A stretch of 64,000 nt of DNA from sequence record NC_031928.1; one strand, given 5' to 3'. The notes below the pieces were generated by a model. That model saw only the letters and a list, made by a program, of their open reading frames with translations. It had not been told where the DNA came from and did not search any database. The first letter of the stretch is position 1. Each line of letters begins with the position of its first letter. Of the stretch, positions 23,543-45,438 are shown in pieces. This DNA comes from Escherichia phage WG01. Both the position numbers and the translations under genes were made by a program.

Positions 23543-23559
23543 TTTGTAATCTCCTGTAG

Positions 23560-23600
23560 TTGATAGGTTTATAGTATCATACCTACAGGAGATGTAAACT
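23560..23600 (-). promoter_or_regulatory. early promoter cassette
   Basis: GTTTACA -35, TACTATAAACC -10 region, dyad CCTGTAG/CTACAGG. Confidence 0.6.
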
Positions 23601-26144: not shown

Positions 26145-26159
26145 TTTTAATCTCCTGTA

Positions 26160-26200
26160 GTTGATAGGTCTATAGTATCATGACTACAGGAGATGTAAAC
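26160..26200 (-). promoter_or_regulatory. early promoter cassette
   Basis: GTTTACA -35, TACTATAGACC -10 region, dyad CCTGTAG/CTACAGG. Confidence 0.6.
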
Positions 26201-27302: not shown

Positions 27303-27783
27303 ATGCTTTCCAAGTACCTGTTTTAAATGTTGAAATCACGCGCTTAGCACGATTAGGAGTTTGTTTATACCAACGGGATTGAGCCAGGTTAACTGCCGCA
27401 TCGTTCCAACGTTTCTGTTGGAGCATACGTAAAGAGTTAGTGAACCCTGCTACGCCTGCTTCACCCATTTGGAAGACCATGTTAATTAAAGCACAACGAC
27501 GAACTTCGTCCAGTACATCATAAACAGGTTTCAATTTAGGATTACGCAGAATAGCTCTACGAGCATTTTCAACCGATCGGTTAAAGAGTTGTTCAGCTTC
27601 AGCCATAGTAATACGACCATTACAAACTCGACCCATAAGCTTATCAAGTTCAGCACGAGCAACATCTTTAGAAGGGTTCTTAGTAATCAATTGGCCAATG
27701 CCAATAGTCCAATAACCTTCAGTGTCTTTATAAAGATTTAAATCAAGACCTTCGTCTTGACGTAACATATCAAAAATATCCAT
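27289..27783 (-). CDS. e: lysozyme (endolysin) e
   Basis: 164 aa, same length as T4 lysozyme; catalytic Glu11/Asp20/Thr26 context [21 protein letters not shown] conserved. Confidence 0.95.
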
Positions 27784-27787
27784 AATA

Positions 27788-27813
27788 CCTCCTGAGTATA
27801 GGAGGTATTTATA
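27788..27813 (-). promoter_or_regulatory. late promoter TATAAATA with RBS-sequestering hairpin for e
   Basis: minus strand TATAAATA-CCTCC-tatactca-GGAGG-tatt-ATG; the 5' arm CCTCC can pair with the RBS GGAGG. Confidence 0.6.
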
Positions 27814-28263
27814 TCAAAAGAGTGAATCCAAAACCTTAAACATCGACGGGCCCATGACATATTCCCATTGTGGCCGTTTAATCAAGGCAAAAGCATCGAA
27901 TTCAGGAATAGTACGACCATCAGGGAACGTATGGTAAGCCGTACATTTGCAATCCTTGAACTGCTCGTGTTCCACAGGAACTGTATATAAGAACAGATGT
28001 AGATTCTTATTGCTTGAATATTTGAACTCACCTAGGTCTTTCAGGAACGCAGGATCGTATGCTGTGAATCCAATCTCTTCTTCGGTTTCGCGCATTGCCG
28101 CTTGAATGGGCTCTTCGCCTGGTTCGACATGACCCTTAGGAATGTCCCATTTATGACGCATATTCTCTGGATTACGAGAGCCTGTTACACGGCCCATGAC
28201 CAGTTCTTTATCAACGGTCATGAATAAAATACCGGCAGATAGTTCTTTCACTTTCTTACTCAT
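27814..28263 (-). CDS. nudE: Nudix hydrolase NudE
   Basis: ATG at 28263 gives 150 aa; Nudix box GHVEPGEEPIQAAMRETEEEIG; follows e as in T4. Confidence 0.85.
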   Translation of the reverse strand: MSKKVKELSAGILFMTVDKELVMGRVTGSRNPENMRHKWDIPKGHVEPGEEPIQAAMRETEEEIGFTAYDPAFLKDLGEFKYSSNKNLHLFLYTVPVEHEQFKDCKCTAYHTFPDGRTIPEFDAFALIKRPQWEYVMGPSMFKVLDSLF

Positions 28264-40295: not shown

Positions 40296-40303
<8 letters not shown>

Positions 40304-41057
40304 TTTTATTTCCTAATAATTTATCAATAGTGGTGTATAGTTCAGAAAGAGTGCCGTTATTTTCAACAACAACGTCACCAGGTAAAATTGGTAGACCCGC
40401 TTCAGTGATGTGCGAGTCTTGTACTTGACCGGTTTCAGCGCGAACTACATGAATAATCGTAGCACCCATCGCTCTGAGCGAATCAATTTCGTGTGTTTGA
40501 CGAACATCAGGTACGACATAGTATTTCGCATCAGAGTATATTTTATCAAAATAGTCTAAAGCGAACAACTTAACCCAATACATCTTATCAAATTGGTTAA
40601 CAATAATATCAGTCCCAAGGGTCTGCATGAGACGACGTACTGACCAATTGTTATTTTTATTTATTACTTCAAACAGTTGGTCTTTTGTTTCTTCAGACAG
40701 ATACTGGACTGGGGTAAGACCATAATGATATGCGGTACGAACATCCATTCCTGGAATAGGAAGGATATTATTCAGTTTGACAATAGCATTTTCAAAGATA
40801 TCAATCACATCATATGGTTTTAAAGGAATGATTTCTTCACGGTCGTAACCGATACCTTCAAAACAGTTAAAATCTAGTTTAGGCATGTAACTACGGTCGA
40901 ATACAGGGTCATCAGAGATGTATTCATAGGCTTCAGCCAGATACTTTTTAATAGGACCTGCGAGCTGAAATTTTACCGAATCCATATTTTCGATTACATA
41001 GTTAGCAACGGTATCCTTACCGCTACGTTTGATTCCTACAATTGATATTAGTTTCAT
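40296..41057 (-). CDS. 1: deoxynucleoside monophosphate kinase gp1
   Basis: 253 aa; N-terminal P-loop GIKRSGKDT; matches T4 gp1 as recalled. Confidence 0.9.
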
Positions 41058-41647
41058 TATTTTCTCATAGATGGATGCATAGACATACGAGCCACTCGTT
41101 GTTCGGCATACGAATCAATTTGTGGACGACCTGTAACTATTGTACCATCTATTTCTACAGCAAACGATTTGAAGTTGAATGTTGCTGTGGCGATAATCGC
41201 CGGGTCAGAATCCTCTTTATAAGAGTACTGGATTTCCGAGAGGTCGGATGGCCAACCACCGTAGTAATGAATGCTCATTACGATTTTCTGTTTGTTGTTA
41301 TCAAGGATGTGGAGGGTGATAGCTTCCGGTTGACCTTTAGGATGCCAGGCTTCTGAATCATGGGTTACATAGTTGTTTAATGACAACATCCACTTATAAA
41401 CGTCAAGCCACGATTTCAATTCACGGTCCACAAGAAAGTTCACAATCAACGGGTCGAATTCTACAGTAGAACCTGGCAGCTTAGCACGATGTATGCCCTG
41501 GGTCGATCCTGGGACGTCTGAGACCGGAATATGGATACCCGGTAGTGTTACATCTTGTACGTTCAATTTGAATGCCTGTGTCATTCCTGCGTCACTAACC
41601 TCTAAGATAAAGTTAGTAGTGTTAGTTTGGTTAAATAAACCGTTCAT
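41057..41647 (-). CDS. 3: tail completion/sheath stabilizer gp3
   Basis: 196 aa; position between genes 1 and 2 as in T4. Confidence 0.7.
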   Translation of the reverse strand: MNGLFNQTNTTNFILEVSDAGMTQAFKLNVQDVTLPGIHIPVSDVPGSTQGIHRAKLPGSTVEFDPLIVNFLVDRELKSWLDVYKWMLSLNNYVTHDSEAWHPKGQPEAITLHILDNNKQKIVMSIHYYGGWPSDLSEIQYSYKEDSDPAIIATATFNFKSFAVEIDGTIVTGRPQIDSYAEQRVARMSMHPSMRK

Positions 41648-41729: not shown

Positions 41730-42557
41730 TTATGAATTCTTCCATACTTTCTGAGCTGAATAACGCTTGCCTTTAGACATGAACTGTTGGAGCGGCATCA
41801 TTACGACATTAGCCCAATCAGACGGTTTTATCTCTACTAAAGGTCCCTTAATATTTCCAGGGATATAAGCCTTAATCATCACGTCGGCGCCAGCGAATCC
41901 TTTTACCTTACTCCAATCGATTTTTAATTTAGTCGAGTTCGTAATGGTAGGCGTACTCGCGTATTGCTTCAGCAATTCTTCCAGAAATTGCTGACGTGCT
42001 TTAGGTGGAATATAGTGTAAGTTCAGTCCGTACATTAAATTATGCTTACCTAACCCAAGATAAATTATTAAAGGATATTTGTCCCAGTATGGTAGGGTAT
42101 CCTTATGTTTGGCATCATAGATATAAGCATAAAGCTTACCAGGAGACGGTTTAGATACCTGGTGCCCACGAATTCCTTTCTTTAATGTTTCTGTAAACCA
42201 TTTAGCCGATTTATTGTTTACAGCGGCGCCCTCGTTAGCAATCTTATCACGAATACTCTTTCTAAAACTATTCACCAAAATTAATTGACGTTCTGCTTTG
42301 GTTAATTTATTGCCAGGTTTCTTCTGAAGTTTTTCAACCTGTACAGCAGTTTTAATTCGACTCGAGTATCGAGACATCGCAGATGTAAAGCTAGAATACT
42401 TGATGCCTTTATCTTCAGCGAATTTCTTAGCCGAAACACCTTTAGCCTTAGCGTTGGCATATTCAACGCCTAAAGTTATCCATTGTTGTTCTGAACGAGT
42501 AGGCTTGGAACCTTTTGTAGTTTCAGTAGCCTCGTTGATGTAAGAAAATATACTCAT
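41730..42557 (-). CDS. 2: DNA end protector gp2
   Basis: ~275 aa; ATG at 42557 overlaps gp4 stop; position as in T4. Confidence 0.8.
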
Positions 42558-43003
42558 CCTTTCCATCCTAATTTTTTCAGTGAGTTTTCGGTAATCAATC
42601 TGAAATTAATTCCCATTTTATCTGCTGTAGCTTTAGCAGCTTTCCATTTATCTTTATTTACACTCCATGTATAATGTTCGTTGATATATCTCTTTTTAGC
42701 AGCTGTAGTCATTTTAGCAGGCGCCGCTGGAGGATGGGTCTCTTTAAAAGGTTTGACTTCGAAAAAGAATTGTTGACCATTGTCGAACTTCACCCAGAAG
42801 TCCATAAAATACCGACGTTTCTTTCCATCAGCGTTACTAAAATATGGAATCACAACCTCTTCCGAGTTCCACTGGACGACATTAGGATGGTTGTCAAGCC
42901 AACGCATAAGCCATGCTTCCCAAGAGGAACGATATTGGATTTTCTTCCAATCACCTTTATATTTTTGTAAGTTTGTAGGTTTAAATTTCCCTGAGTAGGC
43001 CAT
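42554..43003 (-). CDS. 4: head completion protein gp4
   Basis: 149 aa (T4 gp4 is 150); AGGAGG RBS; divergent from gene 53. Confidence 0.85.
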
Positions 43004-43048
43004 AGTGCCTCCTTATAAATATTAATATTATTTATACTCGGAGGCACT
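43003..43048. promoter_or_regulatory. divergent late-promoter region for genes 4 and 53
   Basis: TATAAATA on the plus strand (43014..43021) and on the minus strand (43029..43036), bracketed by a perfect 9-bp inverted repeat AGTGCCTCC/GGAGGCACT that contains both RBSs. Confidence 0.65.
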
Positions 43049-43651
43049 ATGCTCTTCTCATTTTTCGATCCTATAAATTACGAATCAAAAACAGTCAAGC
43101 CAGATTCCGGCTCATTAACTGATGCCGATGTACTGAGCGTACCGATGACTGATATATTTAGAAACTATAAAGAATATTTTGATAAAGTGGCTAAAAATTA
43201 TACACTTAAAACATATTATATCAGTGGGGCCCCTCGTCCAGAAGAATTAGCCCATCAACTTTATGGTAACGTGCAATTATATTGGGTTTTATTGATGTGT
43301 AATAACGTATATGACCCTTATTACGGCTGGATTACAGGCCAAGAATCTGCGTATCAAGCAGCTATTCAACGTTATGCTACTGCAGGCGGAAACCAAGTCC
43401 TTTATCATGTCAATGAAAAGGGTGAGAAATTCTGGAATCTAGTAAATACTCCGGAAAATCCTTATACTTGGTACGATAAAGGTGATACAGAAAAACGTTA
43501 TCCTCAATATGAAGGTCCTTTGGCTGCAGTAGATATTTACGAGGACGCCATTCGTAAAAATGAATATAAGCGCGAAATAAAGATTATAGACCCTAATGAC
43601 ATCGAGTCCTTTGTTTCCGCTTTAATTAGAGAAATGGAGAAAGCCCTCTAA
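43049..43651 (+). CDS. 53: baseplate wedge protein gp53
   Basis: 200 aa; MLFSFFDPINYESKT matches T4 gp53 as recalled. Confidence 0.9.
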   Translation: MLFSFFDPINYESKTVKPDSGSLTDADVLSVPMTDIFRNYKEYFDKVAKNYTLKTYYISGAPRPEELAHQLYGNVQLYWVLLMCNNVYDPYYGWITGQESAYQAAIQRYATAGGNQVLYHVNEKGEKFWNLVNTPENPYTWYDKGDTEKRYPQYEGPLAAVDIYEDAIRKNEYKREIKIIDPNDIESFVSALIREMEKAL

Positions 43652-45438
43652 TGATTAACATGTCTGATAATGTAAGTTGGTTCGTCGGTGTAGTTGAAGA
43701 CCGAATGGACCCACTCCAACAAGGCCGAGTACGCGTGCGCGTATGGGGTATGCATCCCTATGAAAAGGTGCAAGGTCCTGTAAAAGGCCTTCGTACAGAA
43801 GATTTACCATGGATGTCGGTATTAATGCCTACATCTTCTGCCTCTGTTTCAGGTATCCAAACCGCTATGACTGGTATGGTCCCCGGTACACAAGTTTATG
43901 GTCACTTTCTTGATAAGTGGAAATTAAACGGACTTGTCCTTGGTACATACGGTTCCGCTTCAAGACAGAAGGCTAATCCTAATGAAGGGTTTAGTGACCC
44001 TACAGGCCAATATCCGCTTTATTTAGGTAACGATGCTGCTGCTTTAAACCGAGGTGGTGAAGTTGGATACGATGCCACTTCTAACGTAATACAAGATGCA
44101 AACACTGATGTAGGTATTAATCCTGACGGGTTGGATTTAAGTCAAGTCAAACCAGACGATAATCCTAATTTCACAATAGAAAACATGCTTCATCGTGATG
44201 AAGGGCTTAGACTGAAGGTATATTGGGATACCGAAGGTTATCCTACTATAGGTATAGGCCACCTTATCACACCACAACCTATTAGAGATATGAATCGAAT
44301 AAACAAAATATTATCTAATCAGGTAGGACGAGAAGTTAAAGGTAACCCTGGTGCAATATCAATGGATGAGGCTTCTAAATTATTCCAAGAAGACCTTAAA
44401 AAAGTCCAAAACGATATAGGTCGGCATAGTGTTGTAGGTCCTGTTTACAATAAAGAAAACCGTTCAAGACAAATGGCTCTTGAAAACATGGCTTTCCAAA
44501 TGGGATTAGGTGGATTGGCTAAATTCCGTGGAATGCTTAGTGCAATGCTAATAGGCGATTATAAAAAGGCATTTGAGGAAGCTCGTAATTCAGTATGGTT
44601 TAACCAAACTAAAGGTCGCGCATCAAGGGTGTCAATGATTATCCTCACAGGTAACATGGAATCATATGGTATTATGGCCCCTAAAGAAAGGTCATTTAAT
44701 GGCCGTTCGTATAGAATGATTCAAACCTTTGTGGCCCCTACAAATTCAGACCCTGCCGACCCGTGGACTCCAGAAGACACAAGGATTCTTTTTAAAGAAC
44801 CTGATTCTAGTTATAAAGGCGAATATCCATATGTCCAAACCATGCAAACTGAAGGCGGGCATATCCAAGAATTCGATAATACCCCAGGGCAAGAACGATA
44901 CCGTTTAATCCATCCTACCGGTAGTTATGAAGAAGTTGCTCCTGATGGACGTAAAACTTCTAAGACGGTAGCCGATGGTTATTATATGACCCAAGGCGAT
45001 TCAAATACTTATGTTGGTGGTAATAATAAAGTCAACGTTGGTGGCGATGAAACCTATTATAATATGGCAAACGTGCGCCGTCAAACTGATGGGTCTGAAA
45101 GCATTCATATTCGAGGGAATGAAACCAAAACTGTAGAAGGTAATGGAACTCTGCTTGTTAAAGGAAATGTTAAAATAGTTATTATGGGTACTGCTGATAT
45201 AACTGTTGAACAAGAAGCATATATTACGGTTGAAAAAGATACAACAGTTAATGTCAACCAGAATGCAGATATAAGCGTTAAACAAAAGGCCACAATCAAT
45301 GCTCAAAATATGGATGTAAATGTCGAACAAGATTTAAATTTTGCAGCGACGAACATTAATTTAAACGCATCAAATACTGTGCATATGGATGGCGGTTCAT
45401 TAGCTAAAGTATCTGGTGGCAACGTACAGGTCGGTTAA
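43651..45438 (+). CDS. 5: baseplate hub/central spike protein with lysozyme domain gp5
   Basis: 595 aa; N-terminal WFVGVVEDRMDP; lysozyme domain DEGLRLKVYWDTEGYPTIGIGHL; C-terminal beta-helix repeats. Confidence 0.93.
   Translation: MINMSDNVSWFVGVVEDRMDPLQQGRVRVRVWGMHPYEKVQGPVKGLRTEDLPWMSVLMPTSSASVSGIQTAMTGMVPGTQVYGHFLDKWKLNGLVLGTYGSASRQKANPNEGFSDPTGQYPLYLGNDAAALNRGGEVGYDATSNVIQDANTDVGINPDGLDLSQVKPDDNPNFTIENMLHRDEGLRLKVYWDTEGYPTIGIGHLITPQPIRDMNRINKILSNQVGREVKGNPGAISMDEASKLFQEDLKKVQNDIGRHSVVGPVYNKENRSRQMALENMAFQMGLGGLAKFRGMLSAMLIGDYKKAFEEARNSVWFNQTKGRASRVSMIILTGNMESYGIMAPKERSFNGRSYRMIQTFVAPTNSDPADPWTPEDTRILFKEPDSSYKGEYPYVQTMQTEGGHIQEFDNTPGQERYRLIHPTGSYEEVAPDGRKTSKTVADGYYMTQGDSNTYVGGNNKVNVGGDETYYNMANVRRQTDGSESIHIRGNETKTVEGNGTLLVKGNVKIVIMGTADITVEQEAYITVEKDTTVNVNQNADISVKQKATINAQNMDVNVEQDLNFAATNINLNASNTVHMDGGSLAKVSGGNVQVG

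Follow-up and report, generated by a model that had tools for sequence, protein, structure and literature searches.

Genes 4 and 53 stand back to back on either side of a 45-bp gap in the window, by which we mean the whole 64-kb stretch of DNA that was analysed. By sequence similarity, the window is assigned to a JS98-like Dhakavirus of the Tevenvirinae: the 1.3 kb searched around the gap matches Escherichia phage QL01 at 100% identity and JS98 at ~91%. Long open reading frames (ORFs) in the window's ORF list lie overwhelmingly on the minus strand to the left of 43003 and on the plus strand to its right, the few on the opposite strand each overlapping a larger ORF; this part of the genome therefore switches strand at the 45-bp gap. 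The preliminary description had placed the region of interest at 43003-43050. The gap it delimited is real, but those limits take in one base of the gene 4 start codon and two bases of the gene 53 start codon. The genes around the gap are as follows; the gp4 annotation is also carried by the orthologues in QL01, JS98 and T4.

40296-41057, minus strand: gene 1, dNMP kinase
41057-41647, minus strand: gene 3
41730-42566, minus strand: gene 2
42554-43003, minus strand: gene 4, head completion (head closure) protein, an ORF of 149 aa matching Pfam PF08722 (TnsA-like N, E 2.9e-24)
43004-43048: gap between the divergent genes 4 and 53, 45 bp
43049-43651, plus strand: gene 53, baseplate wedge subunit, an ORF of 200 aa matching Pfam PF11246 (Phage_gp53, E 9e-73)
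43651-45438, plus strand: gene 5

Read along the plus strand, the gap and its bordering start codons comprise CAT (43001-43003), AGTGCCTCC, T, TATAAATA, TTAATAT, TATTTATA, CTC, GGAGGCACT and ATG (43049-43051). This sequence is the near-perfect palindrome that had been described: the mirrored element GGAGGCACTATG occurs twice as a perfect 12-nt inverted repeat, and these are its only two copies in the 64 kb. The mirror symmetry holds overall but breaks at two places, namely a T facing CTC between the Shine-Dalgarno (SD) sequence and the box, and the central 7 nt. With its arms extended to 21 nt (42992-43012 and 43040-43060, 86% complementarity), the repeat is the longest in the window among inverted repeats whose arms are separated by at most 60 nt. 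Folded as RNA, it reaches -33.6 kcal/mol on the plus strand and -32.9 kcal/mol on the minus strand (z = -8.5 and -7.4, respectively). Chance was rejected as the origin of the palindrome, given its rank among short-range repeats and the failure of any of 200 shuffles to fold as well. The elements within the gap are the following, of which the core at 43014-43036 (23 bp) is 100% A+T.

42992-43060, either strand: full imperfect palindrome, a hairpin predicted in read-through RNA, reaching into the first codons of both genes
43004-43012, minus strand: gene 4 proximal leader, SD GGAGG (43012-43008) and spacer CACT; anti-SD arm for gene 53 on plus-strand RNA
43014-43021, plus strand: TATAAATA, late-promoter box for gene 53, 27 nt before the ATG at 43049; predicted +1 at 43027
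43022-43028: A/T spacer between the boxes, 7 bp, containing both predicted start sites
43036-43029, minus strand: TATAAATA, late-promoter box for gene 4, 25 nt before the ATG at 43003; predicted +1 at 43023
43040-43048, plus strand: gene 53 proximal leader, SD GGAGG (43040-43044) and spacer CACT; its complement is the anti-SD arm for gene 4 on minus-strand RNA

Turning to transcription, late promoters of the T4 type carry a TATAAATA (or A/TATAAATA) core at -13 to -6 of the non-template strand (PMC1524935). As had been noted, the same motif is present on both strands of the gap, each copy a perfect match. From the -13/-6 rule of T4 we infer start sites at 43027 (plus) and 43023 (minus), both of which are A. 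The motif by itself carries no evidential weight: seven copies of TATAAATA were observed in the window against 7.6 in shuffles, and its bare frequency was accordingly rejected as a significant signal, so that only position is informative. Five of the seven copies precede, by 21-27 nt, the start of a same-strand ORF of at least 149 aa, and the leader distances at the gap (27 nt for gene 53, 25 nt for gene 4) compare with 25-37 nt in relatives. The phage would be expected to encode the gp55, gp33 and gp45 clamp genes, as suggested by its Dhakavirus identity and by the conservation of gp55 among T4-related phages (PMC2988020).

Each box is situated beyond the symmetry centre from its own gene and beside the SD of the other gene. 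The earlier reading is refined by this: instead of standing back-to-back, the two promoters cross and overlap. Going by the geometry of the predicted starts, the divergent late transcripts would overlap by 5 nt; we infer that two polymerases therefore cannot occupy both promoters at once and that only one orientation would be in use at a time.

Some 2,500 phage records carry gene 4. Loci retrieved with gp4 as query yielded 36 distinct 4/53 gaps, almost all of which have a box on each strand at 25-37 nt from the ATG concerned; the carriers include nearly all T-even-type, Acinetobacter-type and Krischvirus-type phages. The T4 gap (NC_000866 77338-77384) runs CAT, TGGATTCTCCT, TATAAATA, GATAATA, TATTTATA, AACAGGAGGGCCC and ATG, and the RB69 gap (NC_004928 80627-80687) contains TATAAATA, GTATTAT and TATTTATA. 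Both resemble the window in having the same genes, crossed boxes on both strands, a 7-bp gap between the boxes and an SD flanking each box. All 22 diverse sequences of an alignment have ATAAATA unchanged on each side, amid variable spacers and outer arms, so that the boxes are conserved at orthologous positions in T4, in RB69 and throughout this alignment. The central spacer varies in sequence and ranges from 4 to 15 bp among the relatives, and box variants of the CTAAATA type appear in RB43-, Slopekvirus- and Aeh1-like phages. Two loci with longer gaps of 66-67 bp (L049 and L056) have overlapping back-to-back boxes (TATTTATAAATA) that still lie 27-28 nt from each ATG, and Aeh1 has a back-to-back TATTTAGCTAAATA. 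Since the box-to-ATG distance is kept when the gap lengthens, as in L049 and L056, the crossing is a result of compaction.

Homing-endonuclease insertions were also observed among these loci; they lie between the paired boxes and gene 4, taking over the gene 4 leader and leaving the rest of the arrangement intact.

The architecture is already known, being common to T4 and RB69, with the RB69 pair predicted in the literature: Nolan et al. 2006 list opposite-strand late promoters at RB69 80613(+) and 80684(-), which correspond to the 4/53 gap, and also predict a late promoter at Aeh1 gene 4. In time-resolved omics of T4 (PMC9697503 supplement), genes 3, 4, 53 and 5 are classed as late RNA and late protein, assignments that give time classes and not 5' ends. 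The T4 GenBank records examined are annotated with no promoter features, and no genome-wide 5'-end data set for T4 was found in the literature. The T4 genome review by Miller et al. of 2003 reportedly lists late promoters for both gene 4 and gene 53. The divergent late promoters proposed for the two genes are well supported by this combination of the layout shared with T4 and RB69, invariant boxes, leader distances, the RB69 prediction and the T4 late class.

We propose that the 4/53 gap may serve as a compact two-way start module for T4-type late transcription and translation. On each strand, a gp55-type box (TATAAATA) 25-27 nt before the start codon would be followed by a strong SD. The boxes would be crossed because two box-SD-ATG units are packed head-to-head in 45 bp, with the gene 53 box adjoining the gene 4 SD and the gene 4 box adjoining the gene 53 SD. 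Such a module, with the palindrome mostly a result of packing and the masking of ribosome-binding sites (RBSs) probably incidental, is the best overall explanation of the locus, and one that we hold with considerable confidence. It locates, in a JS98-like phage, the signals for late initiation of two operons, head-completion (4-2-3) and baseplate (53-5-...).

How far packing accounts for the palindrome was assessed with a null model in which the two boxes, two GGAGG cores and two start codons were fixed and the other 19 positions randomised. Over the 51-nt CAT..ATG span, the null sequences fold at -15.8 +/- 2.9 kcal/mol versus -25.5 kcal/mol for the window. Motif content thus explains about 60% of the hairpin stability, and most of the palindrome exists because two copies of the box-SD-ATG unit are placed in mirror image. 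The T4 hairpin, at -15.3 kcal/mol over the same span, equals the motif-only expectation; the arms of T4 and RB69 are complementary only through their SD cores, whereas the window arm is perfect over 12 nt, start codons included. The stability of the window is reached by 0.06-0.4% of motif-preserving nulls (it exceeds 99.6-99.9% of them), an excess that arises because the CACT spacers are identical and the SD-ATG spacing is equal on the two sides.

These identical spacers have a narrow distribution. The exact 73-nt sequence is found in ~10 phages (QL01, MX01, IME540, FB, PSD9, E33, LQ5, LHE83 and others), whereas ~35 other Dhakaviruses differ from it at three positions. A 1-nt indel sets the QL01 clade apart from other Dhakaviruses. 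In the latter, gene 4 is preceded by GGAGGC[A/G]ACT and gene 53 by GGAGGC[A/C/T]CT, the two varying independently, and the two spacers of the closest relatives likewise vary independently (e.g. GGAGGCAACT versus GGAGGCCCT). In the sequences compared, perfect arms (GGAGGCACTATG on both sides) are a trait of the QL01 sub-clade, with Krischvirus as a second case. In Krischvirus, both leaders are an unusual non-consensus AGGGTGCTAAAATG, perfect over 14 nt in pEJ01 and with one mismatch in the RB49-type PHB13.

Beyond these two lineages, pairing between the arms is not maintained in relatives. No compensatory arm changes were found across the relatives, and the arms do not co-vary; in an RNAalifold consensus of 22 sequences, the box stem and three SD pairs are all that survives (covariation term -0.59). 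Arm duplex energy averages -11.1 kcal/mol within genomes versus -10.6 kcal/mol between genomes (permutation p = 0.11), and in several relatives the arm duplex is weak (-4 to -5 kcal/mol). Start-anchored leader identity is marginally higher within genomes (6.4/14) than between them (5.8/14; p 0.02-0.06). Taken with the hairpin stability above the null and the Krischvirus leaders, this marginal identity leaves room for a force particular to certain lineages, be it selection for pairing or conversion of one arm by the other.

We next consider what the hairpin would do in RNA. The preliminary description held that read-through RNA of either gene would include the complementary arm and could occlude the RBS, while late transcripts would escape this. 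The claim for late transcripts agrees with the predicted geometry: starts at 43027 and 43023 lie inside the loop, so late transcripts would leave out the 5' arm, whereas read-through RNA would have both arms. In silico, the late transcripts fold only weakly (-6 to -8 kcal/mol), the late gene 53 leader retaining weak local pairing of its SD. A minimal read-through RNA of ~99 nt reaches about -33 kcal/mol, and lower with longer flanks; on either strand the predicted probability that its SD is unpaired is ~0, and its AUG is also essentially always paired. The same tendency is predicted for the relatives, in which the median energies are -16 and -18 kcal/mol for read-through RNA versus -4 and -3 kcal/mol for late transcripts, with a median AUG accessibility of 0.06-0.10 versus 0.64-0.77. 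RNA entering from outside would thus be expected to form a very stable hairpin from both arms, hiding the SD and AUG, and late transcripts to stay open. The occlusion of read-through RNA accordingly holds as thermodynamics, with SD and AUG paired in the longer RNA and freed in the late RNA, but is not supported as a selected function, the arms showing no compensatory evolution.

A stronger form of this idea, that the palindrome is a selected two-sided translational insulator whose internal late promoters yield open mRNAs, fits the geometry and thermodynamics just described, and T4 e, soc, 49 and I-TevI are established examples of the mechanism (PMC3014915). The same genome uses this logic at gene e and in two early promoter-in-hairpin cassettes; these sites in the window are as follows.

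23549-23593: PeSL-like early promoter-in-hairpin cassette
26145-26199: PeSL-like early promoter-in-hairpin cassette
27813-27806: TATAAATA box of gene e, with a hairpin of -14.1 kcal/mol in the textbook arrangement

Because the gene e hairpin reaches only about -14 kcal/mol, even a motif-only 4/53 hairpin would be strong enough to matter. An insulator would also be consistent with the excess of the window hairpin over motif-only expectation, with the retention of the 73-nt sequence in MX01 although its flanks are only 94.6% identical, and with the independent occurrence of a perfect 14-nt mirrored leader in Krischvirus. In T4, moreover, omics data show many late proteins to be made from early RNAs, making translational delay a general need. 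Against it stand the missing compensatory changes, the independent loss of extended pairing on each side in close relatives, the finding that a genome's own arms pair no better than arms taken from different genomes, and the weak arms of several relatives.

The supply of read-through RNA bears on the same question. A search of the 43 kb preceding gene 53 found no plus-strand gene or TATAAATA, which would leave that gene's half of the insulator without a purpose. Toward gene 4, the only plausible source seen is a putative promoter antisense within gene 5, recognised by its match to consensus:

45056-45084, minus strand (antisense in gene 5): sigma70-type promoter-like site, TTGACG-17-TATAAT, 11/12

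This site, ~2 kb from the palindrome, occupies the position that the oriE/repEA early promoter has in T4, and T4 oriE depends on an early promoter (PMC3016281). It is directed toward gene 4, in line with an insulator, and masking could therefore matter only for gene 4, which faces this early-type promoter. A search of the nearby minus strand for a MotA-type middle promoter feeding genes 4-2-3-1 gave no match. In T4, gene 4 RNA is late, gene 2 RNA middle and gene 1 RNA early; the late class of gene 4 RNA argues against heavy early transcription across the gene 4 start, and the RNAs of both gene 4 and gene 53 being late-class counts against the insulator. Considering these points together, we regard a selected two-sided insulator as doubtful, and masking at this locus as probably a side-effect of the two-way start module.

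Two further features near the locus were examined and set aside. A RepEB homologue was considered as a sign of early antisense transcription; it has 40% identity over 45 aa and is not independent evidence, because it lies antisense to the conserved gene 5. A terminator-like hairpin on the minus strand (43114-43096), a candidate for shielding gene 4, was rejected because synonymous sites in relatives do not preserve its pairing.

The hairpin might instead act as a terminator, attenuator or RNase III site on antisense or read-through RNA at the strand-switch point. On the plus strand, UUUUU (43061-43065) comes directly after the end of the extended stem at 43060, T4 has a terminator-like call at the gene 53 SD/ATG followed by U6, and a stem of ~27 bp with bulges would be long enough for a double-strand RNase substrate. 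The features of an intrinsic bidirectional terminator are nevertheless incomplete: U5 occurs on the plus strand only, after an interrupted stem, the minus strand having no U-tract, and the site was not called by the terminator scan. The conserved gp53 N-terminus, MLFSFF, accounts for the T-run, conservation of the stem does not extend past the motifs, and terminators belong to gene ends while this site comprises two gene starts. A role in RNA termination or processing is accordingly improbable.

Symmetry could, alternatively, reflect a signal in the DNA, such as a site for a dimeric protein or a cruciform, linked for example to the oriE-like region. The palindrome is strong and its 23-bp core is all A/T, the counterpart of T4 oriE is ~2 kb away, and DsbA is reported on A/T-rich sites overlapping two T4 late promoters (PMC2988020). 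A DNA operator or cruciform is unlikely, however, because conservation is limited to the promoter boxes and SD cores; the spacer (4-15 bp) and outer arms vary freely, and there was no match to Rfam or other motifs. We consider it the most remote of the explanations weighed here. A known RNA family was likewise rejected: the only Rfam match, a generic hairpin one to mir-1684, scored 20.8 bits, below the gathering score of 60.

For the two-way start module, the importance beyond annotation is small, the conspicuous palindrome being mostly a consequence of packing. Two general consequences would follow from its geometry. Crossed late promoters would have to compete for one polymerase-sized site at the late strand-switch point, and any compact 4/53 junction is predicted in silico to mask both ribosome sites automatically on foreign transcripts. 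Residual interest lies in this possible polymerase competition and in the QL01 clade and Krischvirus, two lineages that have each perfected the symmetry of their arms; this is a possible natural case of quasi-palindrome correction or of selection for masking. Leader symmetry in these lineages might be maintained by arm-to-arm templated (quasi-palindrome) correction. That the identical leaders of QL01-type Dhakaviruses and Krischvirus form a selected double-sided switch of the e/soc/49 type, with late promoters inside the loop, is a tentative suggestion and seems to us rather unlikely.

Comparison with known systems helps to define the module. In T4 e, soc, 49 and I-TevI, the position of the late promoter deprives late RNA of the 5' arm needed for the hairpin in which longer transcripts bury their SD and AUG (PMC3014915), and the predicted late starts of the 4/53 gap similarly leave out the arm that would hide the RBS. 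The T4 cases have documented same-strand early or middle transcription upstream, whereas the upstream source at the 4/53 gap is putative; their structures are conserved, whereas the 4/53 pairing is not conserved beyond the motifs. Masking at the 4/53 gap would, in addition, be two-sided, which none of the T4 cases is, and its anti-SD arm is, unlike theirs, the SD of the other gene.

Bacterial bidirectional promoters, described by Warman, Grainger and colleagues, owe their origin to symmetry of the -10 element and typically have starts 18, 10 or 23 bp apart (PMC12825309). The 4/53 gap is like those of E. coli in its pseudo-symmetric A/T-rich sequence, its divergent transcription and its mutually exclusive polymerase orientations (PMC12825309), the last two being predicted here. 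In E. coli, the starts lie around or within a shared -10 element, whereas the 4/53 gap has two separate facing gp55-type boxes with starts crossing by 5 nt; the 4/53 gaps of L049, L056 and Aeh1 have the back-to-back or shared form seen in E. coli. Finally, the module resembles the PeSL (promoter-early stem-loop) cassettes of T4-type phages in combining a promoter with a stem-loop at a gene boundary (PMC2839356, PMC4122927). PeSLs contain sigma70 early promoters and occupy hyperplastic regions, whereas the 4/53 module has late boxes and lies in the conserved core genome.

Overlapping late promoters on opposite strands are not unique to the dual-promoter module in the 45-bp gap between genes 4 and 53. 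Such a pair was predicted by Nolan et al. in RB49, in the intergenic stretch that separates gene 34 from a hypothetical gene; at RB49 144965-145038 (locus L116; L-numbers denote loci of related phages compared with the window), the late-promoter box TATAAATA was read on the plus strand only. Upstream of gene 4 in Aeh1 (L089), back-to-back TATTTAGCTAAATA separates this gene from a divergent neighbour other than gene 53. In Krischvirus (L112, L113, L086, L087; pEJ01 and PHB13/RB49 type), the unusual leader AGGGTGCTAAAATG opens both gene 4 and gene 53, forming a 14-nt inverted repeat that is perfect in pEJ01 and has a single mismatch in the RB49 type. This pair is independent of the GGAGGCACTATG pair of the window, and the identical Krischvirus leaders could have arisen through arm-to-arm conversion or selection.

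Five IMG/VR relatives (L045, L059, L063, L067, L076) carry a 600-730 bp insertion that separates gene 4 from the dual-promoter module, at about 470-1200 of each locus, and in L067 an HNH homing-endonuclease ORF was detected within it. The insertion begins at the exact position where gene 4 usually starts. Gene 4 in these loci retains its SD alone and is presumably co-transcribed. In the window, the end of gene 4 overlaps the start of gene 2 by 13 nt (42554-42566), the stop codon of gene 3 adjoins the start of gene 1 (ATAATGA, 41057), and neither TATAAATA nor a MotA-type promoter was found on the minus strand from gene 4 to early gene 1.

Two features of the window lie antisense within genes 5 and 53:

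45056-45084, minus strand: near-consensus sigma70 promoter-like site (TTGACG-17-TATAAT), antisense within gene 5
43086-43114, minus strand: terminator-like hairpin followed by ACTGTTTTTG, antisense within gene 53, just before the palindromic 4|53 gap

The first shares its relative position with the T4 oriE/repEA early promoter, and an ORF at 43655-43810 (minus strand) has 40% identity to T4 RepEB but runs antisense to conserved gene 5. The terminator-like hairpin is probably fortuitous, because its stem positions differ among relatives at synonymous sites without compensation.

Turning to promoters associated with SD hairpins, the following minus-strand regions were identified:

23549-23593 and 26145-26199, minus strand: near-identical cassette pair, early-type promoter and SD hairpin
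27765-27830, minus strand: start region of gene e (lysozyme-like, 164 aa)

Both cassettes contain a T4-early-type promoter (GTTTAC, 17 nt, TACTAT). The anti-SD hairpin arm ATCTCCTGTAG forms the promoter spacer, and the SD of the next ORF lies inside the opposite arm CTACAGGAGAT. The cassettes represent, for early promoters, the promoter-inside-hairpin logic, whereby the SD is masked in a longer RNA and the transcript from the internal promoter lacks the 5' arm, and they resemble the promoter-early stem-loop (PeSL) cassettes of T4-type phages. At gene e, TATAAATA is present at 27813-27806 (minus strand) and the SD is masked by a 10-bp hairpin, AAUACCUCCU/AGGAGGUAUU (computed -14.1 kcal/mol), the same classic arrangement as that of T4 gene e (PMC3014915).
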